Positions 2,792-37,435 of a DNA stretch of 44,195 bases are shown piece after piece; position 1 is the stretch's first letter; each line of letters begins with the position of its first letter. The notes under the pieces were generated by a model, which searched no databases, had not been told where the DNA came from, and saw nothing but the letters and a program-made list of their open reading frames with translations. Position numbers and translations under genes: made by a program. The DNA is taken from IMG/VR virus record IMGVR_UViG_2541047814_000002. One strand, given 5' to 3'. This DNA comes from a virus. Lineage: Duplodnaviria; Heunggongvirae; Uroviricota; Caudoviricetes.

Positions 2792-5700
2792 TCAACTGAT
2801 ACTGATACCGGCTGTAGATTTCTTCATCACAACAACAAGAAGGTCGCTGATACTGGTCGTTGGCGTCCAGTTATTAGCACCATATGAAGAAACATTGAAA
2901 GTCAGGGTGACATGGCCGTGTCCGGCAGGCATATCAATGACTGATGAAAATACCCTGCTGACATCCGTCGCGGGTTGCTGAAAGATTTCCTGTCCGTTCT
3001 TCAGTACCTGCAGCTTACAGGTTGAATACCAGTATGACTGTTGGTTGTTGCTGTTGAAGTTTTCATGCTTACCCCCACGAAACAGAACGGGGGGGACTAC
3101 TATCTGACGGTCAAAAGCCTGGTCATCGTACACAGTGACCGTTATTGTACCGCTGGCATAACTGCCATTTCTCGGAAAGGCTTTTCCCACCGTTTTGACA
3201 ATATCACCTTCAATCTGGTTAGCTGACAGTTTTCCCAGAATCCGACAGTTCTGATTAATCGTGACGTTGTTGAGCGTCCCGGAGTTCGCGTTCACGTTAC
3301 CGCTGATATCCGCATTTTTCGCAGAAAGTCGACCATCAGGTGTCAGTGAAAACGTTGGGGGATTGCCACCGCTGGTAATGGTGGGAGCCGTCAGATATTT
3401 CAGGAACACTTCGTTCATGAATATCTGATCGCCCTGCCCAACAAACATCGGCTTTGTGTTGCCATTCGCAGGATTAATCATCGCAATCCTGTCCGCCGCC
3501 AGCAGCACCTGACTCTGCATACCGTCAGGAGTATTCTCAACACCGGCACCAATACCCGCGATATAAAGGCGTCCGTCCTGCATCTGCTGCAGCTTCACAG
3601 CCCACATGCTGTTCAGGTTATTATTTGTATCAACCTGAACCTTCTGTATCTGCTGGATCGCTGCACTCTGGTCTTCCAGTTTCTTATTGACGGTCTGCGT
3701 GATTTCATTGCTGACACCCGTAATGGACGTCCTGATTTCAGCCAGGTCAGGCGCAAGCTGACCGTTATCAATCTGCGTCCACAACTCCTGAGCCAGATGG
3801 GTTTTCCCTATCTCTCCTTTGAAAAAATTCAGATAGCCGGATGCATCATCACTCGGCTGGCCAACAGCCTCCACAAATGCCGATTTGCCAACGGTGTTCA
3901 CACTGCGGATGTAAAAATAATAATCATGGCCCGGTTTGATATTGATACTGGCGGCTATCCAGTACAGCGCCGTGCCAAGATAGCGTGCTGTGGTTTCAAC
4001 CTGCCTGATATCCGCAATCCGCTTTTCCGAGAACCAGAACTCAAACTGTACCGTCGGATCATAAACCGCAAGATGCGGCGTGGCGGTTATCTGAAAATAC
4101 CCCGGTGTCAGCTCAATCTGCGACGGCGCTGCCGGTGCGGCAATCCGGAACGATACCGATGCCGGATCGCCCTGCTGCCCCCACGCATTTACCGCCCGGA
4201 CTGTCAGCCTGTAGTTCCCCAGCGCCAGTTGCCTGAAGCGGTATGTGGTTTCCGTCGTCCGGGCCGTGCTGACCAGCCGCTCACTGCCGTCATCCGCTGC
4301 CACGGTCAGGCGAAGCATAAAGCTCACCCCCTTCACCACCTTCGGCGTGTCCCAGCGCGCCAGCACCTGATATTCCCCGCTGTCTGCGGTGACTTCGGCA
4401 GTCAGGTGCTGCACCGCTGGCGGCGTGACACCATTCACCGTGCCGCTCTGGTCGCCGTCAAAGTGCGCCCCGTTATCCACGATGGCCTCTTTTTCCGGTA
4501 CATGCTGCACGGCAGTGATGGCATACGTGCCGTCATCGTTCTCACGGATACTCACACAGCGGAACAGGCGCTGGCGCAACGTTGGCAACTTCAGCCCCCA
4601 CACGCTGTATTCTGCAACGCCGTCAGGAACACGGCTCACTTTTACCTTCACGCCGTCGGTGACGGACTGGACCTCCACGCTGACCGGATTCCCCTGTCCG
4701 TCAGCCAGGCTTATCAGCGTGGTGCCGGAGGATGGCAGCGTGATTTCACGGTCGAGCGTCAGTGTCCGCGTCTGGTTGTTCACCGCCAGCACGCGCCCGC
4801 CGATGCTGATCCCCGCATAGTCATCATCACAGATTTCAATGACATCGCCCGGTACATGGCGAAGCCCTTCTGCACCCACGCTGAAGTCCACGGTCTGCGT
4901 TTCCAGCAGCTCCGTTTTAATCAGCCACAGCCCGGCGCGGTGTGCCTGCCCCCGGCTGGTACAGCCAAAGGCATCCATCTTCGTGACGTTACGACCGTAA
5001 CGGGCAATGGCCTGCGTGTCCTCCACAAGCTCTGTCGCCGTCTCCCAGCCGTTATCCGGGTCAATCCAGTTCACCTCAACGGCATTATGGCGGTCTTTCA
5101 GGGCGCTGAAGCTGTAGCGGAACGGCGCGCCATCATCCGGCATCACCACATTACTGCGGTTATAGGTCCACACCTTATCCGACGGTCGGTCCTGCACGAA
5201 TGTCAGCGTCTGCCCGTTCCATACCGGCATACAGCGCATCGCCGAGCAAAAATCACTGAGCACATCCCACGCCTTGCGCTGTGTGGTCAGGTACGCATTA
5301 CAGGTGATGCGCGGCTCCGTGCCGCCAAAGCCGTCCGGCACTGACTGGTCGCAATTCTGGCCGATGACATACAGCGCCCATTTATCCACATCTGCCGCAC
5401 CAAGACGTTTCCCCATGCCGTAGCGCGGATGGGTCAGCATATCCCACAGACACCAGGCCATGTTGTTGCTGTATGCTGGCTTAAACGTTCCGTCCCAGAT
5501 ACCGCTGTATTGCCGCGTCTGCGGGTTATAGTTCGACGGCACCTGCAGAATGCGCCCGCGAAGATGATAATTACGGCTCACCTGCTGGCTGCCGAACTGC
5601 TCCGAGTCCACCTGTACGCCGACCAGTGCCGTGTTCGGGTAGCACTGTTTCACATCGATGATTTCGGTGTATGACGACCAGAGCGTTTTGTTCTGCAACT

Positions 5701-25146: not shown

Positions 25147-25473
25147 TCAAGGACGTGACGGCGTAAAGATAAATTGTCTCTTCACTCCCTGACAGGGGCG
25201 ATTCTTTTCAAATCGCCATTTCGCCATGGCCTTCACCACTTCATCACGAAACAAATTATGAGGCTCTGAGCGGAGAAAAACGATCCGTGTCACAGTCCCA
25301 TCAGCACCAATATCGAACTTAACCTCAACCAGCCCCTTGATATAATTTGCTGCAGCATATTCCGGATATCGTGGATACACCGTCACTAATTGCCGGGGCT
25401 CATCAGCTTTTTGCTGCGAGCATCCCACTGCCAGGACAGATAACAGAAAAAGTAGTAAAAGGCGTCTTTTCAT
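25147..25473 (-). CDS. TonB C-terminal-domain-like lipoprotein
   Basis: Lipoprotein signal MKRRLLLLFLLSVLAVGC; remainder resembles the TonB C-terminal domain (YP.YP..A....I.G.V.VKFDI.ADG.V......L.S.P...F..EV.KAM.KWRF). Confidence 0.6.
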   Translation of the reverse strand: MKRRLLLLFLLSVLAVGCSQQKADEPRQLVTVYPRYPEYAAANYIKGLVEVKFDIGADGTVTRIVFLRSEPHNLFRDEVVKAMAKWRFEKNRPCQGVKRQFIFTPSRP

Positions 25474-25953
25474 TTTTATTCCTACGGGTCTTATTCTGAC
25501 AATATATCCTGTGTTCCAGACTGCCACATCACCACATCCTGTGCCATTATCTGACTCACATTACATACATCGCATCGGGATACAGTAGTAGCACTTTCTG
25601 TAATACAGCTTCCTGTTTCTTCCACCATCGCACCGGGATAAACCCGCGAATCATTAACGCGGTAAAAACCCGGTGTGCATCGTTTTTAATTATTCCCGCA
25701 CACTCACGCAGAAGGAATTCCCCGTCGGGCTACGGTCATGGTTAATGCGGGAATACGGCGACGATACAGCGCAGCTAAAAGGGTAATGGACGGATAGACC
25801 GGTTTATTTCATTCCACAGGATTCTGAGTGTCCCCAACTTCCTCCAATAGTCTGAGCCCACCTGTGTAGTTTTAATTTTCATCAATCCATTTAACTATCG
25901 TTTAATTGTTGTCACATAGGATTCTGCCGTTTTTAACAATGCAGGATAATAAG

Positions 25954-26247
25954 ATGAAAAAAATGTTGTTTTCTGCCGCTCTGGCAATGCTTATTACAGG
26001 ATGTGCTCAACAGACGTTTACTGTTGGAAACAAACCTACAGCAGTAACACCAAAGGAAACCATCACCCATCATTTCTTCGTTTCGGGAATTGGGCAGAAG
26101 AAAACTGTCGATGCAGCAAAAATTTGTGGTGGTGCAGAAAATGTTGTTAAAACAGAAACCCAGCAAACATTCGTAAATGGATTGCTCGGTTTTATTACTT
26201 TAGGCATTTATACTCCGCTGGAAGCGCGTGTGTATTGCTCACAATAA
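25954..26247 (+). CDS. bor: Bor lipoprotein (serum-resistance, Iss family)
   Basis: 97 aa, MKKMLFSAALAMLITGCAQQTFTV.NKP.AV.PKETITHHFFVSGIGQKKTVDAAKICGG... matches lambda Bor. Confidence 0.9.
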   Translation: MKKMLFSAALAMLITGCAQQTFTVGNKPTAVTPKETITHHFFVSGIGQKKTVDAAKICGGAENVVKTETQQTFVNGLLGFITLGIYTPLEARVYCSQ

Positions 26248-26278: not shown

Positions 26279-26740
26279 CTATCTGCACTGCTCATTAATA
26301 TACTTCTGGGTTCCTTCCAGTTGTTTTTGCATAGTGATCAGCCTCTCTCTGAGGGTGAAATAATCCCGTTCAGCGGTGTCTGCCAGTCGGGGGGAGGCTG
26401 CATTATCCACGCCGGAGGCGGTGGTGGCTTCACGCACTGACTGACAGACTGCTTTGATGTGCAACCGACGACGACCAGCGGCAACATCATCACGCAGAGC
26501 ATCATTTTCAGCTTTCGCATCAGCTAACTCCTTCGTGTATTTTGCATCGAGCGCAGCAACATCACGCTGACGCATCTGTATGTCAGTAATTACCGCGTTC
26601 GCCAGCGTCAGTTCTCTGGCATTTTTGTCGCGCTGGGCTTTGTAGGTAATGGCGTTATCACGGTAATGATTAACAGCCCATGACAGGCAGACGATGATGC
26701 AGATAACCAGAGCGGAGATAATCGCGGTTACTCTGTTCAT
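26279..26740 (-). CDS. Rz: i-spanin Rz
   Basis: [44 protein letters not shown]... matches lambda Rz. Confidence 0.9.
26338..26520 (-). CDS. Rz1: o-spanin Rz1 (lipoprotein, embedded in +1 frame of Rz)
   Basis: 60 aa, .[58 protein letters not shown] matches lambda Rz1. Confidence 0.85.
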
Positions 26741-27234
26741 TGCTGACCCCACAAACAGATTTCACGCTCAATCTCACGACGAGTCATGAGACCTTTCCAT
26801 TGCTTACCGCCAGCATATGTCCAGCGACGTAGCTGATCACATGCGCCTTTGATATCGCCCTGGTTTATTTTGCGAAGAAGCGTCGATGTTCTGAAATTGC
26901 CAGCACCCACGTTGTAAACGAATGAGTAAAGAGCGCCGCGCATTGTTTCCGGTATATCGACTTTGATGTACGGGTTAATTTGTCTGGCGACCGTGGCAAG
27001 GTCTTTATTCAGGAGGGCTTTGCATTCTGCTTTGGTATACGTTTTACCGAGCATGATGTCTTTTCCTGTATGCCCGTGACATACAGTCCATACACCAACA
27101 ATATCTTTGTATGGTATGTAGCTGACACCTTCCAGACCATCGTTACCACTTGGGCCAGTGATTAACACTGATGCTATAGCAATTGCTCCGCCACCAATAG
27201 CAGCAGCAACGGCTTTTCGTAATGATGGAGGCAT
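26737..27234 (-). CDS. R: SAR endolysin (T4-lysozyme-like, GH24) with N-terminal signal-anchor-release domain
   Basis: N-terminal Gly/Ala-rich weakly hydrophobic segment [18 protein letters not shown] followed by lysozyme catalytic region (E..D..T); resembles phage 21 R rather than lambda R transglycosylase. Confidence 0.85.
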
Positions 27235-27449
27235 TATTCACCTCTCGCAGCCTTGCGCTTATCTTCTTTAATCTTGAAATAAAGGTTTGTCAGGTACGTC
27301 AGCAGGCCAAATACCAGGCTACCCAGCACACCTATTGCCGCCCACTGTGAGGGCGTGACTTTATCGAGCAACTGTAAAAACCAGTACCCGGCACTACCTG
27401 CTGAGGTACCATAGGCGACACCCGTTGTTAACTTATCCATGGATTTCAT
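27234..27449 (-). CDS. S: pinholin (S21-type) with dual start motif
   Basis: 71 aa, MKSMDK...[18 protein letters not shown]...[35 protein letters not shown] resembles phage 21 S pinholin. Confidence 0.85.
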
Positions 27450-27574
27450 AACCCCACCTCGCAGACAAAGCGGGTGTAAATTAAGGGGATACTACGTATC
27501 GCAATAAAGGCAGAAACGTAACAGATTCGGAGTCAGTGAATAACTCAGGTATTGGGTTATCAGCTAATATCGAG

Positions 27575-27612
27575 ACTCAAAAAATGGAAAAACCCGCTCG
27601 ACGGCGGGTTTA
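27575..27612 (-). terminator. candidate intrinsic terminator upstream of S
   Basis: Minus-strand hairpin AACCCGC..GCGGGTT followed by TTTTTCCATTTTTTGA. Confidence 0.4.
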
Positions 27613-28037
27613 AGCTGTGTGACGAAGTAACCACTCTTAACAGCATAACCAATTTTTTACGTACGTAAACTACTAAATGATATTTGTGAGAATGCCACCG
27701 AGTGTTCAAAACACCACCACAAATGCATAAGAAAACTTCAACAAATAACCAGTTAATAATTTCCAATGTTATTTTTAGTTTGTTTAAATTAAGCTAAAGA
27801 ATTATAGAGCACTTATAAATAAGTGCCATTAATATAAATTAGCTAATAGATTTATTTTTGTTCAGACAAGAGCCATGAATAGGATTAGATAGAAAAGGTT
27901 CAGATAAAAATAGAGATCTACTTCACAAATTAAATGAGAAACTAAAACTTACATCTTGAAATAATCACATTGATTAGATGAATATTTATCGCGCAGTGAC
28001 ATCATTTTTTAATAATAGTTCAAAAAAAGGGCGTACA

Positions 28038-29120
28038 ATGAAAAAATTAACAGTGGCAATTTCTGCTGTAGCTGCATCAGTACTGATGGCGATGTCTGCT
28101 CAGGCAGCTGAAATTTATAATAAAGACAGTAACAAGCTGGATCTATACGGGAAAGTTAATGCCAAGCACTACTTCTCCTCTAATGATGCAGATGATGGTG
28201 ATACTACTTATGCCCGTCTTGGCTTCAAAGGTGAAACCCAAATCAACGATCAACTGACTGGTTTCGGTCAGTGGGAATATGAATTCAAAGGCAACCGTGC
28301 TGAATCTCAAGGTTCTTCCAAAGACAAAACCCGTCTTGCATTTGCAGGCCTGAAATTTGGTGATTACGGCTCAATCGATTACGGCCGTAACTACGGTGTA
28401 GCATACGACATCGGTGCGTGGACTGACGTTCTGCCAGAATTCGGTGGTGATACCTGGACCCAAACAGATGTGTTCATGACTGGTCGCACTACTGGTGTTG
28501 CAACTTATCGTAACAACGACTTCTTTGGTCTGGTCGATGGCCTGAACTTTGCTGCTCAGTATCAGGGTAAAAATGACCGCACTGACGTAACTGAAGCCAA
28601 TGGTGATGGTTTCGGTTTCTCCACTACTTATGAGTATGAAGGATTCGGCGTGGGTGCAACCTATGCTAAATCAGATCGCACTGACGGTCAGGTCGCCTAT
28701 GGTAAGAGCAAATTCAATGCCTCCGGCAAAAATGCGGAAGTATGGGCTGCAGGCCTGAAATATGATGCGAACAATATCTATCTGGCTACCACATATTCTG
28801 AAACTCAGAATATGACCGTTTTTGGTAATAACCATATTGCAAACAAAGCACAAAACTTTGAAGCAGTAGCACAATATCAGTTTGACTTCGGTCTGCGTCC
28901 ATCTGTTGCTTACCTTCAGTCAAAAGGTAAAGACCTTGGTGTTCATGGTGACCGAGACTTAGTCAAGTATGTCGATGTCGGTGCTACTTACTACTTTAAT
29001 AAAAACATGTCCACTTTTGTTGATTACAAAATCAACTTAATTGACGATAGTAAGTTTACCAAAACAGCTGGTATTGATACCGACGACATCGTCGCTGTAG
29101 GTCTGGTTTATCAGTTCTAA
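28038..29120 (+). CDS. nmpC: outer membrane porin, NmpC/Lc (OmpC-family) type
   Basis: 360 aa with signal peptide [38 protein letters not shown] start and C-terminal VAVGLVYQF; located between Q and S as in DLP12 and PA-2. Confidence 0.9.
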
Positions 29121-29137
29121 TCTGACTTACGAAAAAG

Positions 29138-29172
29138 ATATGTTGCGGGAGGCTTTGCCTCCGCAACATATA
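29138..29172 (-). terminator. candidate late-region terminator (tR'-like) between Q and porin
   Basis: Long perfect hairpin ATATGTTGCGGAGG-CAAAG-CCTCCCGCAACATAT followed on the minus strand by TCTTTTTCG. Confidence 0.35.
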
Positions 29173-29257
29173 AGTGGAGCCCTCAAGCCACTTCCTTTAG
29201 AAGCACTACCTTGCTTCTTACTATATAAACCTTCTGTTATATATTACCCTTTATTTT

Positions 29258-29282
29258 GGGGGCGTTTCCACGCCCCATTTTT
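29258..29282 (+). terminator. candidate intrinsic terminator downstream of porin gene
   Basis: Plus-strand hairpin GGGGCGT-TTCC-ACGCCCC followed by ATTTTTAA. Confidence 0.4.
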
Positions 29283-29308
29283 AATAACTTTTAGTAAACA
29301 ATTGCATA

Positions 29309-29692
29309 TCAATTAGAATTATTAGCAACGATATCCATATCTAACCGGATATCTAATGCCATTAACATCCCTTCAATTATGCCCTCAGCCTTCTGTAACC
29401 TTTTCCCGATATAACCATCCGAGCAGCAATGCTTACTTGCCAGTGACATGAATGTCATACCACATACATAATAATCTACTAATAAATCGTGTAAATCGCT
29501 GTTGTTCTTTTTCAGACGGGCCATGCACCCGCAAATGATCATCGCGTCATCGTCACAACATTGCGGGCGAGATTTTACTTTTGAAGGAATTAATCCCTTA
29601 AAACCGGCGGCAATGGACGACCAGGTCACATCTTCATGATTATTAGCCGCCCACGCACCCCAACGCTCAAGAACCATCTGAATATCACGCAT
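29309..29692 (-). CDS. Q: late gene antiterminator Q (DLP12 QuuD / phage 82-type)
   Basis: 127 aa from ATG 29690..29692, [22 protein letters not shown]... with Cys-rich region; position upstream of lysis cassette. Confidence 0.8.
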
Positions 29693-29914
29693 CAACTTAC
29701 TCCACAAAAATCAGACCAGAACGCCAATTACAAGCAAAAATCAACAAAACAGTATTAGTTGATTGTTATCTCTGACTTCATACTCCTGTTCCTGTCAGGG
29801 TTTTGGCGTAATTCTTCAGTATTCGGTAATCGGTCAAAACAGAACCGAGGAAACGATATAAGCGCAGACGCCCCCAGCGGTGGCGAAGAAGTTCTGCCAT
29901 ATTAAACTCAAACA

Positions 29915-35419: not shown

Positions 35420-35977
35420 TTGGCAAAAATAGATGATTATCAGCCAAGCCAAGTAGAAGTTGATAAAGTACTTTATTGTAAAAAAATAGTTAACTTTTCT
35501 GGCGTTAAATGGAAACAGAAACCAAGTCGCTCTGATATGTGGCTACAAGCCCATATCATCCCCTTGGATGAGGATTGTATACCTATACAAGGGCTAAAGT
35601 TTGAACTGAAATGGAAACCAGATCAGGATTCAGAACCTGATGACCCGATTTCTTACCCTAAAATAAATATTATTGCTTTCTATCATAACAAGAGGGTTTT
35701 CGCGGTAGATACCTATCACTTTGACAAACACACGAATAGTTACAAGGTCGATCATCCGAAGTACCAAGATATCATTTACGGTGCTCACTACCATGTATAC
35801 TATGAAGAAGCTGGATACTATAGTGATAGAATAGCGTTTCCAATCGAAGATGACATAAACCCAGATGACCTGGTAGGGTATTGGAATTACTTCTGTAAAC
35901 ATCTGAACATAACTTACTCTGGGAGAATACCTTTACCGCTTGAAGATGAGTCGGGGCAAATGGGGTTTGGAATATGA
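35420..35977 (+). CDS. hypothetical protein (185 aa), first gene of an operon in the rexA position
   Basis: ORF 39 nt downstream of cI on the same strand; TTG start in the ORF track (start uncertain); acidic, Tyr/His-rich; no recognisable homology; AT-rich coding sequence. Confidence 0.65.
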   Translation: MAKIDDYQPSQVEVDKVLYCKKIVNFSGVKWKQKPSRSDMWLQAHIIPLDEDCIPIQGLKFELKWKPDQDSEPDDPISYPKINIIAFYHNKRVFAVDTYHFDKHTNSYKVDHPKYQDIIYGAHYHVYYEEAGYYSDRIAFPIEDDINPDDLVGYWNYFCKHLNITYSGRIPLPLEDESGQMGFGI

Positions 35978-36726
35978 TGTGCTCAACAGTGATCTCACAA
36001 CTAGGTTTCGAATGCCATCCAATAGGCAAGACCTTGAGAATTATCAGTCCATTCACTTACTGTGATGATGGAGAGCATGTCGGTGCCTTTATCCGTGAAG
36101 TCAATGGTAGGTATTTAGTTAGTGACAGATGCGATGCCTTAATGAATATGGAGGCAAGAGGGATCTCGCTTACCAAAAAACGACTTGATGAGATACGACA
36201 ATTACTGCTTAAAGAAGGCGCAGAACTCAATGCTCGAGGAGAAATCATTGCTTGGGCAACAGAAAAGGATGTCGGTGCGATTACATCGAACATAATTAGA
36301 GCTGGTATACTCGCATCAACTTTGTCGTTAGACTGGTATCAGCCAGTTCAAGCTGAAAAGTTTGAAAGTATGGTTATTGATTATCTATATCACACAGAGC
36401 TTAGAGACGCACTTTCTCTTCGTGAAAACGTATATGGCTTGAGTGGACATCAAATTACCGTCCCTGTAACAATAAAAACCGACATACCTAAATACGTTTT
36501 TACATCAAGCGTGAAACACGGAGGAAGCTGGAATAGTGCTTACTCATTGCTTGGGAAACTAATTGATCTTAAAGCTTCAAGTGAGGAGTATAACAACAGA
36601 TTTGTTGTTATAGACAGCGAAGCAATTGGTGATCAAATGCAACAACTCTCCTTACTCTTCCATGAATCAAGCCAAGTTCTACCATTCTCCAAAAGAGAGA
36701 CTTGGGTTAAGAGACTTGCAGCATAA
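35974..36726 (+). CDS. hypothetical protein (250 aa), second gene of an operon in the rexB position
   Basis: ATG overlaps upstream stop (ATGA); followed by intrinsic terminator; no recognisable homology. Confidence 0.7.
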   Translation: MMCSTVISQLGFECHPIGKTLRIISPFTYCDDGEHVGAFIREVNGRYLVSDRCDALMNMEARGISLTKKRLDEIRQLLLKEGAELNARGEIIAWATEKDVGAITSNIIRAGILASTLSLDWYQPVQAEKFESMVIDYLYHTELRDALSLRENVYGLSGHQITVPVTIKTDIPKYVFTSSVKHGGSWNSAYSLLGKLIDLKASSEEYNNRFVVIDSEAIGDQMQQLSLLFHESSQVLPFSKRETWVKRLAA

Positions 36727-37162: not shown

Positions 37163-37435
37163 ATGTCCAGAAAAACAGAATTTAAAGGCACCGCAGCTTC
37201 TCGCCGTAGAGCTCGTCGCGCAAATCTGCAAAGTCAGGAGGCGATCAGCTCCGACAAGCTACACAGGCCAACCCCTTCACGAGTGGTCTTGCAATGCAAG
37301 CTCAAACCAGCAATGAGAGCAGAAGTGATAACTCTGACAACGTTGACCAGAAAATATGAAGGTTCAACTTGTCTTCCGAACGTAGCTCTTTACGCGGCAG
37401 GCTACCGGAAATCAAAACAACTGACGGCGAGATGA
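37163..37435 (+). CDS. N: antitermination protein N (P22-like C-terminus, Arg-rich N-terminal motif)
   Basis: ATG preceded by GGGAGG; Arg-rich motif TAASRRRARRANLQ; C-terminal LPNVALYAAGYRKSKQLTAR resembles P22 gene 24/N. Confidence 0.75.
   Translation: MSRKTEFKGTAASRRRARRANLQSQEAISSDKLHRPTPSRVVLQCKLKPAMRAEVITLTTLTRKYEGSTCLPNVALYAAGYRKSKQLTAR

Follow-up and report, generated by a model that had tools for sequence, protein, structure and literature searches.

The window analysed here is a stretch of 44,195 nucleotides of Caudoviricetes DNA (IMG/VR record IMGVR_UViG_2541047814_000002), in which the surrounding prophage looks complete, with tail genes through to int at icd. The genes at and next to the locus of interest are as follows.

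29309..29692, minus strand: Q antiterminator gene of the QuuD type, 127 aa (Pfam PF06530)
28038..29120, plus strand: porin gene, OmpC-family, intact, between Q and the S21-type holin gene
27234..27449, minus strand: S21-type holin gene S (Pfam PF04971, P21 S)
26737..27234, minus strand: SAR-type lysozyme gene R (Pfam PF00959)
26279..26752, minus strand: Rz with embedded Rz1 frame (Pfam PF03245)
26279..27449, minus strand: the whole lysis cassette S-R-Rz, from the three Pfam matches
25906..26247: bor/iss homologue

The interval 27450..29310 is precisely the gap between the start of S (27449) and the stop of Q (29309), and gene positions, Pfam matches and RefSeq annotation together give the order Q, antisense porin, S of a lambdoid phage, i.e. 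the NmpC/Lc-type placement. A sequence-only reading of this DNA had described an intact NmpC/Lc-type porin gene lying antisense between Q and S, which is borne out by the strands and gene positions and by alignment of the ORF to the full Pfam Porin_1 profile (1-337/337, E=2e-151). The ORF also passes the NCBIfam 'porin OmpC' model (521 bits, cutoff 484), and in the PDB it is matched best by OmpC, OmpK36 and OmpK37; alignment to structures of OmpC and OmpK36 covers residues 24-360, as expected of a full-length 16-strand porin domain. ATG 28038 is the most likely start codon (360 aa, beginning MKKLTV...), in agreement with Lc and RefSeq; some phage records instead list a 380-aa ORF, which begins at the in-frame ATG 27978. 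The protein has a 23-aa signal peptide followed by AEIYN and ends in ...VYQF, with an aromatic residue at the C-terminus; a signal peptide of 23 aa is likewise annotated in the PA-2 record, and the N-terminal 60 residues of the porin and of PA-2 Lc are identical. Over the full length identity to Lc is 91%, the window porin being five residues shorter, with the differences bunched at residues ~181-235, 264-270 and 337-352, stretches that may represent external surface loops under selection.

The locus recurs at 100% identity in the prophage at icd of E. coli ATCC 11775, and at 99.9% in phages ev017 and PhiR57_1; RefSeq names the lysis genes of the identical prophage essD, rrrD and rzpD. Across a 2.56 kb block, identity is 93% to the lc record of phage PA-2 (J02580) and ~91% to quuD-nmpC::IS5-essD of the K-12 prophage DLP12, in which IS5 lies inside the porin. 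With the locus scored at ≥80% coverage and porin intactness left unscored per genome, the block is present in 2395 of 5426 complete E. coli genomes (~44%). A repeat search of the window gave no flanking direct or inverted repeats marking the borders of the porin cassette. The window locus is therefore the long-known nmpC/lc porin gene of lambda-like E. coli prophages, reversed between Q and the lysis genes, a classical lysogenic-conversion gene of lambdoid coliphages that is textbook material, described as early as the 1980s.

Three elements flank the porin on the plus strand, and one hairpin separates it from Q.

27673..28037, plus strand: AT-rich porin control region, GC 25-31%
~27910..27930, plus-strand control region: CRP-like site TGTGAAGTAGATCTCT, annotated as CRP/CAP in the PA-2 record J02580 and placed on the window by alignment
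29259..29285, plus strand: porin-side intrinsic terminator, GGGGCGUUUCCACGCCCC then AUUUUUAAU, from the terminator scan, 140 nt past the stop codon
29138..29172 (29130..29172 with its U-run), minus strand: Q-side hairpin, a 15-bp bulged stem, then CUUUUUCG

The suggestion that the porin has an AT-rich upstream region of its own thus holds, GC falling to 25-31%, and a promoter scan of this control region gave no strong sigma-70 consensus. The PA-2 record carries a second 'CRP site', which maps to the invariant transcribed region of the late promoter described below; the spacing of its half-sites is 8 nt instead of 6, and it was not taken as a CRP site. Lc of PA-2 is a lysogenic-conversion porin, and expression of the window porin in the lysogen is supported by analogy with its close homologues NmpC and Lc: NmpC makes up ~2% of the proteome in K-12 NCM3722, a strain with an intact copy, and goes up under carbon limitation in that strain. 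The porin-side hairpin at 29259..29285 (fold -13.8 kcal/mol, z=-2.5) is followed on the minus strand by CAAAAUAAAG, without a U-run, and probably marks the end of the porin mRNA. The Q-side hairpin is the stronger fold (-22.3 kcal/mol, z=-4.0), with CUUUUUCG after the stem on the minus strand only; on the plus strand it is followed by AAGUGGAG, again without a U-run.

The Q product matches PF06530 (E=8e-54) and the PHROG 'anti-termination protein Q-like' (E=7e-53), is ~82% identical to Q of 933W/Sp5 over residues 1-120, and matches the Q21 structures 6p18 and 6jnx distantly (E=4e-8); these matches point to a member of the Q21/Q933W family of late antiterminators (PF06530). The program-made ORF for Q reaches back to a TTG at 29707.

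Between the porin control region and S lies a compact set of minus-strand elements which, as judged from sequence, probably make up the late control module of this phage.

27642..27669, minus strand: putative late promoter PR' (-35 TTTACG at 27669..27664, 16-nt spacer, -10 TATGCT at 27647..27642)
27669..27656, minus strand: 14-nt perfect palindrome TTTACGTACGTAAA, candidate Q-binding element
27613..27639, minus strand: near-invariant initial transcribed region TAAGAGTGGTTACTTCGTCACACAGCTT, with a predicted +1 at ~27635; candidate sigma-dependent pause region
27575..27612 (stem 27590..27612), minus strand: tR' hairpin AAACCCGCCGUCGAGCGGGUUU then UUCCAUUUUUU, from terminator scan and fold

No other sequence in the window matches a mapped late promoter of this Q family, and the matching segment (27669..27635) lies past the porin in the late direction, ~185 nt before S. 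The palindrome occurs in single copy, and the 21-nt core of the module (27619..27639) is likewise unique in the window and had no matches in 100 shuffles; no second copy of module or palindrome was found anywhere in the window, including near Q. The hexamers are weak, at 4/6 and 4/6 (8/12), and fall under the promoter-scan threshold. A scan match at 27829..27801 (ATGGCA-17-TATAAT) had been considered as PR' and was dropped, since homology to Stx phages puts the promoter 160 nt further on. The stem at 27590..27612 is followed on the minus strand by UUUUUCCAUUUUUU, and hairpin and U-run stop short of the S start at 27449, so that an intrinsic terminator stands upstream of the lysis genes. An Rfam search of 27000..29800 at a permissive E-value returned only chance-level matches to sau-19 and the Trp leader, far under their gathering scores.

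Assignment of the module draws chiefly on the Shiga toxin phages, in which the promoter is experimentally mapped. The stretch 27672..27588 (minus strand) aligns at 78% identity, across 85 nt, with the sequence in which Q ends in Sp5 and P13374. For Sp5, Sy et al. 2020 located the PR' start by dRNA-seq, together with a 3' end 258 nt downstream. Applying a +142 shift between versions of the Sakai genome, a value deduced from internal consistency and not from a record, the mapped start is an A 7 nt past a -10 TATCAT that matches the window -10, and the mapped 3' end is the last T of the tR' U-run. The matching first hairpin is leaky in Sp5, where a 258-nt RNA is made; the strength of tR' in the window is assumed. 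A TAG before TTTACG was rejected as the stop codon of Q933W, translation continuing to a TAA inside the palindrome.

Further support comes from K-12, where the DLP12 module and tR' are base-for-base identical to those of the window (the PA-2 module differs at one base). IS019, a K-12 small RNA of 67 nt in the essD direction that is recorded as experimentally verified, lies at 3716..3783 of L129, spans the DLP12 module and ends in the tR' U-run; its published left end is 14 nt upstream of the predicted +1. IS019 is the DLP12 counterpart of lambda 6S RNA, which offers a simple origin for this small-RNA candidate, and by analogy with the identical K-12 module the PR'-tR' unit of the window would be expected to give the same kind of short transcript. 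Another prophage small RNA, svsR, which limits phage infection, is located at cI and is unrelated to the module.

Across phages, at least 120 IMG/VR contigs contain the module core. In ~95 of the 120 a Q gene could be seen upstream, always of the QuuD/Q933W family and on the same strand; these Q genes are 39-100% identical and lie 17 to ~2460 nt from the core. The intervening cargo, variable in the distance it imposes, is mostly reverse-oriented, and in relatives the promoter matching the mapped PR' shifts away from Q whenever cargo is present. Occupants of the gap include the porin, Kiwa, a KAP NTPase (PDC-S20), an HNH-like PDC-M68A protein, a hydrolase, lipoproteins and several gene sets without known function. 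The transcribed region remains ~90% identical even between distant Q clades, and every module variant has a hairpin with a U-run at the tR' position, including variants in which the hairpin sequence has been replaced. Among 60 distinct loci, by contrast, the palindrome in the -35/spacer region differs from one Q clade to the next, all 10 clades having their own, and Q identity correlates with upstream identity (Spearman 0.63; 0.53 for pairs with different cargo). Q may load at a clade-specific palindrome; linkage could account for part of the agreement between palindrome and Q clade, though this agreement persists across different cargos. Q21 itself has direct repeats as its binding element.

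Taken together, these data favour a reading, to which we assign a probability of roughly 0.8, in which the porin occupies a slot between Q and PR' and not between PR' and S, so that late transcription would start at PR', past the porin, and proceed without crossing it. In the prophage state the porin would be transcribed rightward from its own AT-rich and probably CRP-responsive promoter, with its mRNA most likely ending at the plus-strand terminator 29259..29285. Unmodified leftward transcripts leaving Q would meet the minus-strand terminator at 29172..29130 and end there before entering the porin antisense. Late transcription would begin ~400 nt beyond the porin start codon (-35 at 27669, -10 at 27647, +1 near 27635), over a candidate sigma-dependent pause element in the initial transcribed region; without Q it would stop ~50-60 nt on, at tR' (27612..27575), giving a short RNA, and with Q loaded at the palindrome in the promoter spacer RNA polymerase would pass tR' into S-R-Rz and the structural genes. 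Because PR' lies beyond the porin in the late direction, Q-modified late transcripts would not cross it, and antisense crossing should be possible only for N-modified early transcripts that run past Q.

The sequence-only reading had the Q-modified late transcript forced through some 1.8 kb antisense to the porin. This is probably wrong: a sequence matching the mapped PR' lies at 27669..27635, and both its homology and the K-12 short RNA IS019 put the promoter downstream of the porin, an arrangement that reading had itself named as telling against it. Both of the hairpins that it had listed as terminators for Q to override are present, each with a U-run on the minus strand. That role probably belongs to the one at 27590..27612 alone, as tR'; the Q-side hairpin at 29138..29172 is not tR', because it lies upstream of the PR' module, and it would act on early (PR/N) transcripts leaving Q rather than on late ones.

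Lambda, 21, 82 and 933W have their late promoter immediately behind Q, and on that pattern PR' would lie just behind Q here as well, with 29172..29138 serving as tR' and a late transcript that crosses the porin antisense and then overrides 27612..27590 too. The strength of the Q-side hairpin, with its U-run on the late strand only, speaks for such a layout, and Sy et al. 2020 place the late promoter directly behind Q in Stx phages. However, no promoter-like site was found by the promoter scan either between Q and this hairpin or across the whole Q-porin spacer (29308..29121), although the same scan also missed the weak PR' homologue; the spacer resembles no late-promoter region and is found only in porin-bearing phages. 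Given also the single copy of module and palindrome, far from Q, and the displacement of the mapped-type promoter in cargo-bearing relatives, we regard a promoter adjoining Q as very improbable. A less improbable, though still unlikely, possibility is that the lysis genes are expressed mainly from an RpoE-dependent promoter, essDp, with Q acting together with sigma-E as proposed for DLP12, and that 27669..27575 is only a terminator or small-RNA unit. The window does hold a sigma-E-like promoter at the right place, on the minus strand at 27989..28021 (GAACT-17 nt-TCACT, +1 near 27989), which corresponds to the literature +1 of DLP12 'essDp', and a genomic-SELEX holoenzyme peak, from the table for the stationary-phase sigma RpoS, falls between insH and essD. 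In Q21-type antitermination a sigma-70-dependent promoter-proximal pause is required, which counts against a sigma-E start, and the sigma-E motif lies outside the module common to Stx phages. Pasqua 2021 cites control of the DLP12 SRRz operon by Q and RpoE, and numbers its reporter -121..+650 from the essDp start. Its primer Pdlp12Fw (-121 from the start of Rueggeberg 2015) maps to 28091..28110, and the position of the +1 near 27989, i.e. an RpoE-type start ~350 nt upstream of the predicted PR' +1, is deduced from that primer numbering. The reporter fragment, which drives SRRz, begins inside the porin signal-peptide codons and hence lacks the Q-porin spacer; such fragments also hold the PR' module, so that a response to Q cannot separate the two promoters, and essDp, too, would lie beyond the porin coding sequence in the late direction and so does not rescue the idea of antisense read-through.

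As regards the porin itself, its very AT-rich upstream region is typical of H-NS targets, and the K-12 copy was inactivated by IS5 without a growth defect, as would fit a silent passenger, xenogeneically silenced or decaying, with no role in the lysogen. Against this, the window gene is intact and full length, the locus is present in the 2395 genomes counted above (with the same threshold and porin intactness unscored), NmpC is abundant in the K-12 strain with an intact copy, and the bunching of differences from Lc suggests surface loops under selection; we give this account hardly any credence. At somewhat less than even odds, the porin may be one occupant of a general Q-PR' cargo slot, whose genes are kept outside the late unit, with a Q-clade-specific palindromic loading site at PR' and a short PR' RNA that may act in trans like StxS. 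Genes of the gap, including the defence systems in related phages, are probably prophage-state genes shielded from late transcription. Such a cargo slot has apparently not been described formally so far, and a literature search for a Q-adjacent defence hotspot gave nothing specific. The late promoter of the QuuD/Q933W-type Q family appears as a portable module that cargo can part from its Q, and therefore a PR' adjoining Q should not be assumed in annotation.

Among known systems, a close counterpart of the locus is PA-2 lc (GenBank J02580; Blasband, Marcotte and Schnaitman 1986), which has the same order and orientation, from the end of Q through the antisense porin to S, R and Rz. DLP12 nmpC (quuD-nmpC-essD) is the same locus; in MG1655 it belongs to a defective prophage and has the porin interrupted by IS5, whereas the window porin is intact. 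Stx phages of the 933W/Sp5 type have a homologous promoter (TTTACG, 16 nt, TATnnT) with a palindrome of the same design, and an initial transcribed region and first hairpin with U-run near-identical to those of the window. In these phages, however, the module overlaps the last Q codons and has its cargo (tRNAs, stx) behind it in sense orientation, whereas in the window 1.64 kb of antisense cargo stands in front of it. The match to the 258-nt Sp5 unit is confined to its first ~85 nt, so that the 200 nt at the 3' end of StxS, which hold the 74-nt active small RNA, are absent from the window; neither this 74-nt 3' fragment with its seed nor any Rfam family match was found. Finally, the porin resembles the reverse-oriented lambdoid morons of the bor type in being a single gene with its own promoter, antisense to the late operon and presumably expressed in the lysogen. 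The two differ in placement: bor follows Rz within the late transcription unit and so is crossed antisense by late transcripts, whereas the window porin, by the present analysis, lies outside that unit.

Positions 27450..29310 separate the start of S from the stop of Q, the two flanking genes being:

27234..27449, minus strand: P21-type holin gene (S)
29309..29692, minus strand: Q gene

The single long plus-strand ORF in this gap encodes a complete general porin, bearing out the sequence-only reading of an intact OmpC-family gene antisense to both neighbours: it matches the entire Pfam Porin_1 profile (E=2e-151), its score exceeds the cutoff of NCBIfam 'porin OmpC', and its residues 24-360 align with the OmpC and OmpK36 structures. 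By comparison with PA-2 Lc and RefSeq the start is likely ATG 28038 (MKKLTV...); an in-frame ATG at 27978 adds 20 codons to the ORF (27978..28037, plus strand) and accounts for the 380-aa 'OmpD' annotation in several phage GenBank records. The AT-rich stretch noticed upstream of the gene is also present, GC falling to 25-31%. A CRP-like site annotated in the PA-2 record precedes the start codon by ~110 nt (window ~27910..27930), and fits the behaviour of NmpC in K-12 NCM3722, where nmpC is intact and the protein makes up ~2% of the proteome and increases under carbon limitation.

Sequence comparison identifies the locus as the classical nmpC/lc. Order and orientation are those of the PA-2 lc record J02580 (1986; DNA 93% and protein 91% identical), and quuD-nmpC::IS5-essD of DLP12 is the K-12 counterpart (~91% identity). 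Phages ev017 and PhiR57_1 share the 2.56 kb block at 99.9% identity and about a dozen others at 99-99.6%, while a prophage integrated beside icd in E. coli ATCC 11775 matches it at 100%. Of 5426 complete E. coli genomes, 2395 carry the block at ≥80% coverage. The porin, its position, its orientation and its role in lysogenic conversion are thus already known. S and the porin also share a perfect 13-nt inverted repeat (27407..27419 and 28692..28704), such that both mRNAs contain GTCGCCTATGGTA, encoding VAYG; this is probably coincidence.

The sequence-only reading further held that the late transcript must cross the porin, assuming that PR' abuts Q. A promoter scan of the 188-nt Q-porin spacer, which is found only in porin-bearing phages (36 records), revealed no promoter-like site. 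When the porin-S spacer was used as query in a search for distant matches, window 27672..27588 (minus strand) matched hundreds of Stx phages at ~78%, the Stx-phage counterpart being the terminal stretch of the Q gene. Alignment of the window with P13374 and Sakai Sp5 gave a common unit of TTTACG, a 16-nt spacer and TATGCT (TATCAT in Sp5), followed by G(T/A)TAAGAGTGGTTAC..., a hairpin (AACCCGCC...GCGGGTT) and a U-run. By homology to Sp5 and P13374, the features in the window (all minus strand) would be:

27669..27664: PR' -35
27647..27642: PR' -10
near 27635: PR' +1
27612..27575: terminator after PR', beyond which S begins at 27449

The hexamers are weak (8/12). For Sp5, Sy et al. 2020 used dRNA-seq to determine where transcription from PR' starts and Term-seq to locate the tR' 3' end, 258 nt away. 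With a +142 shift between Sakai genome versions applied to their positions, the start is the A 7 nt after TATCAT and the 3' end the last T of the terminator U-run, placements that corroborate each other. The first hairpin of the Sp5 unit, counterpart of the one after PR' in the window, is passed by part of the polymerase, which continues to a second terminator. The Q proteins of Sp5 and the window are ~82% identical over 120 residues. Homology therefore places the predicted PR' of the window at 27669..27642, past the porin in the late direction, and leaves obligatory transcription across the porin unsupported.

Evidence from K-12 MG1655 points the same way. The DLP12 copy of the module (the PR'-tR' unit) is identical to that of the window, and the PA-2 copy differs by one base. 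Romero et al. 2014 list an sRNA of 67 nt, IS019, in the nmpC-essD interval with the orientation of essD (576438-576505), recorded as verified earlier by Raghavan 2011 and Conway 2014. Moved by +777 to NC_000913.3, IS019 occupies 577215..577282 (3716..3783 of the DLP12-bearing segment, L129), equivalent to window 27649..27580; its left end lies 14 nt before the predicted PR' +1 and its right end within the U-run after the hairpin, so that it coincides with the DLP12 PR'-tR' unit. In DLP12, IS019 probably corresponds to the 6S RNA of lambda or to the 5' part of StxS. Pasqua et al. 2021, who cite control of the SRRz operon by Q and RpoE, found SRRz promoter activity in a fragment whose start within the signal-peptide codons of the porin leaves out the Q-porin spacer. 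The 'essDp' start of Rueggeberg, located from the Pasqua 2021 numbering near window 27989 at a GAACT-17-TCACT motif, would likewise lie on the S side of the porin coding sequence.

Q (leftward) and the porin (rightward) are convergent, and in the arrangement we propose their terminators would be crossed. Both hairpins that the sequence-only reading had Q override, 29138..29172 and 27575..27612, are present with U-runs on the minus strand only; the latter (27590..27612) would be tR', overridden by Q as suggested, whereas the former would lie upstream of PR'. Porin mRNA would read through the hairpin at 29138..29171, which has no U-run on the plus strand, and terminate at 29259..29285; unmodified Q transcripts would cross the hairpin at 29276..29259 and terminate at 29172..29130. 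The porin promoter and PR' would stand back to back, ~300 nt apart, and Q-modified polymerase, starting at PR', would never meet the porin. Since the window has an N-like gene (37163..37435), N-modified early transcripts could conceivably pass Q and run antisense over the porin.

A bor/iss lipoprotein gene (25906..26247, plus strand; Lambda_Bor E=2e-30; iss in RefSeq), just past Rz and antisense to the late operon, is inside the late transcription unit, whereas the porin would be outside it. A 126-aa ORF (25147..25527, minus strand) matches the Pfam TonB C-terminal domain (E=1e-12) and the PHROGs 'Rz-like spanin' family; other annotation names it a partial TonB-like protein of CP-933N. Between cI and N, in the position of lambda rexAB, lie two genes without an assigned function (35420..36726, plus strand; one PHROG unknown, the other DUF1828), which may be further prophage-state cargo or a defence pair.

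The 21-nt module core, single in the window and absent from 100 shuffles, was found in at least 120 IMG/VR contigs. Among the matches listed, ~95 of 120 carry a same-strand QuuD/Q933W-family gene upstream (39-100% identical), a set baited by the module and hence no measure of the frequency of Q genes without it in this family; most of the remainder have little DNA upstream of the core. The distance from Q stop to module varies in these matches from 17 nt to ~2.46 kb, which makes the tie between module and Q one of function rather than position. The gap holds ~20 different cargos of 0.6-2.5 kb among the matches listed, window 27673..29308 being one instance, and in all but two the longest ORFs oppose the Q/module strand. 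Cargos include:

porin
KwaA/KwaB (Kiwa), E=2e-150
KAP NTPase (PDC-S20), E=1e-177
HNH-like PDC-M68A protein
alpha/beta hydrolase
lipoproteins
several sets of 2-3 genes, function unknown

In the laboratory phage 434B (OL657227, 2521..6112) the DLP12 Q-nmpC::IS5-S segment is present as a substitution, so that 1.2 kb of IS5 within the porin, between Q and PR', is compatible with phage viability. A limited literature search found no published description of a mobile PR' module with a Q-to-PR' cargo gap; this side result, with its clade-specific palindrome and mostly reverse-oriented cargo including defence genes, may merit separate follow-up.

The listed Q proteins fall into 10 clades when clustered at 75% identity, and the palindrome in the PR' -35/spacer differs from clade to clade:

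27656..27669, minus strand: TTTACG(T/A)(A/T)CGTAAA, listed also as TTTACGTACGTAAA, QuuD/Q933W clade
other clades: GCGGTCCGC, GCGTACGC, TGGAATTCCA, ATTCGTTACGAAT

Each is followed by an A-tract, at window 27656..27669 (minus strand) and the same position in the contigs. Among the matches listed, the more alike two Q proteins are, the more alike are positions -47..-9 (Spearman 0.63; 0.53 for different-cargo pairs); the initial transcribed region is ~90% identical throughout, and a hairpin and U-run after it are retained even where the hairpin sequence is replaced. Such co-variation is the pattern expected if the palindrome were a Q-loading site, and makes this dyad-symmetric sequence a candidate for the element bound by Q. 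The last codons of Q in Sp5 include the -35 and part of the palindrome. The binding element of Q21 consists of direct repeats, unlike the dyad-symmetric palindrome at PR'.
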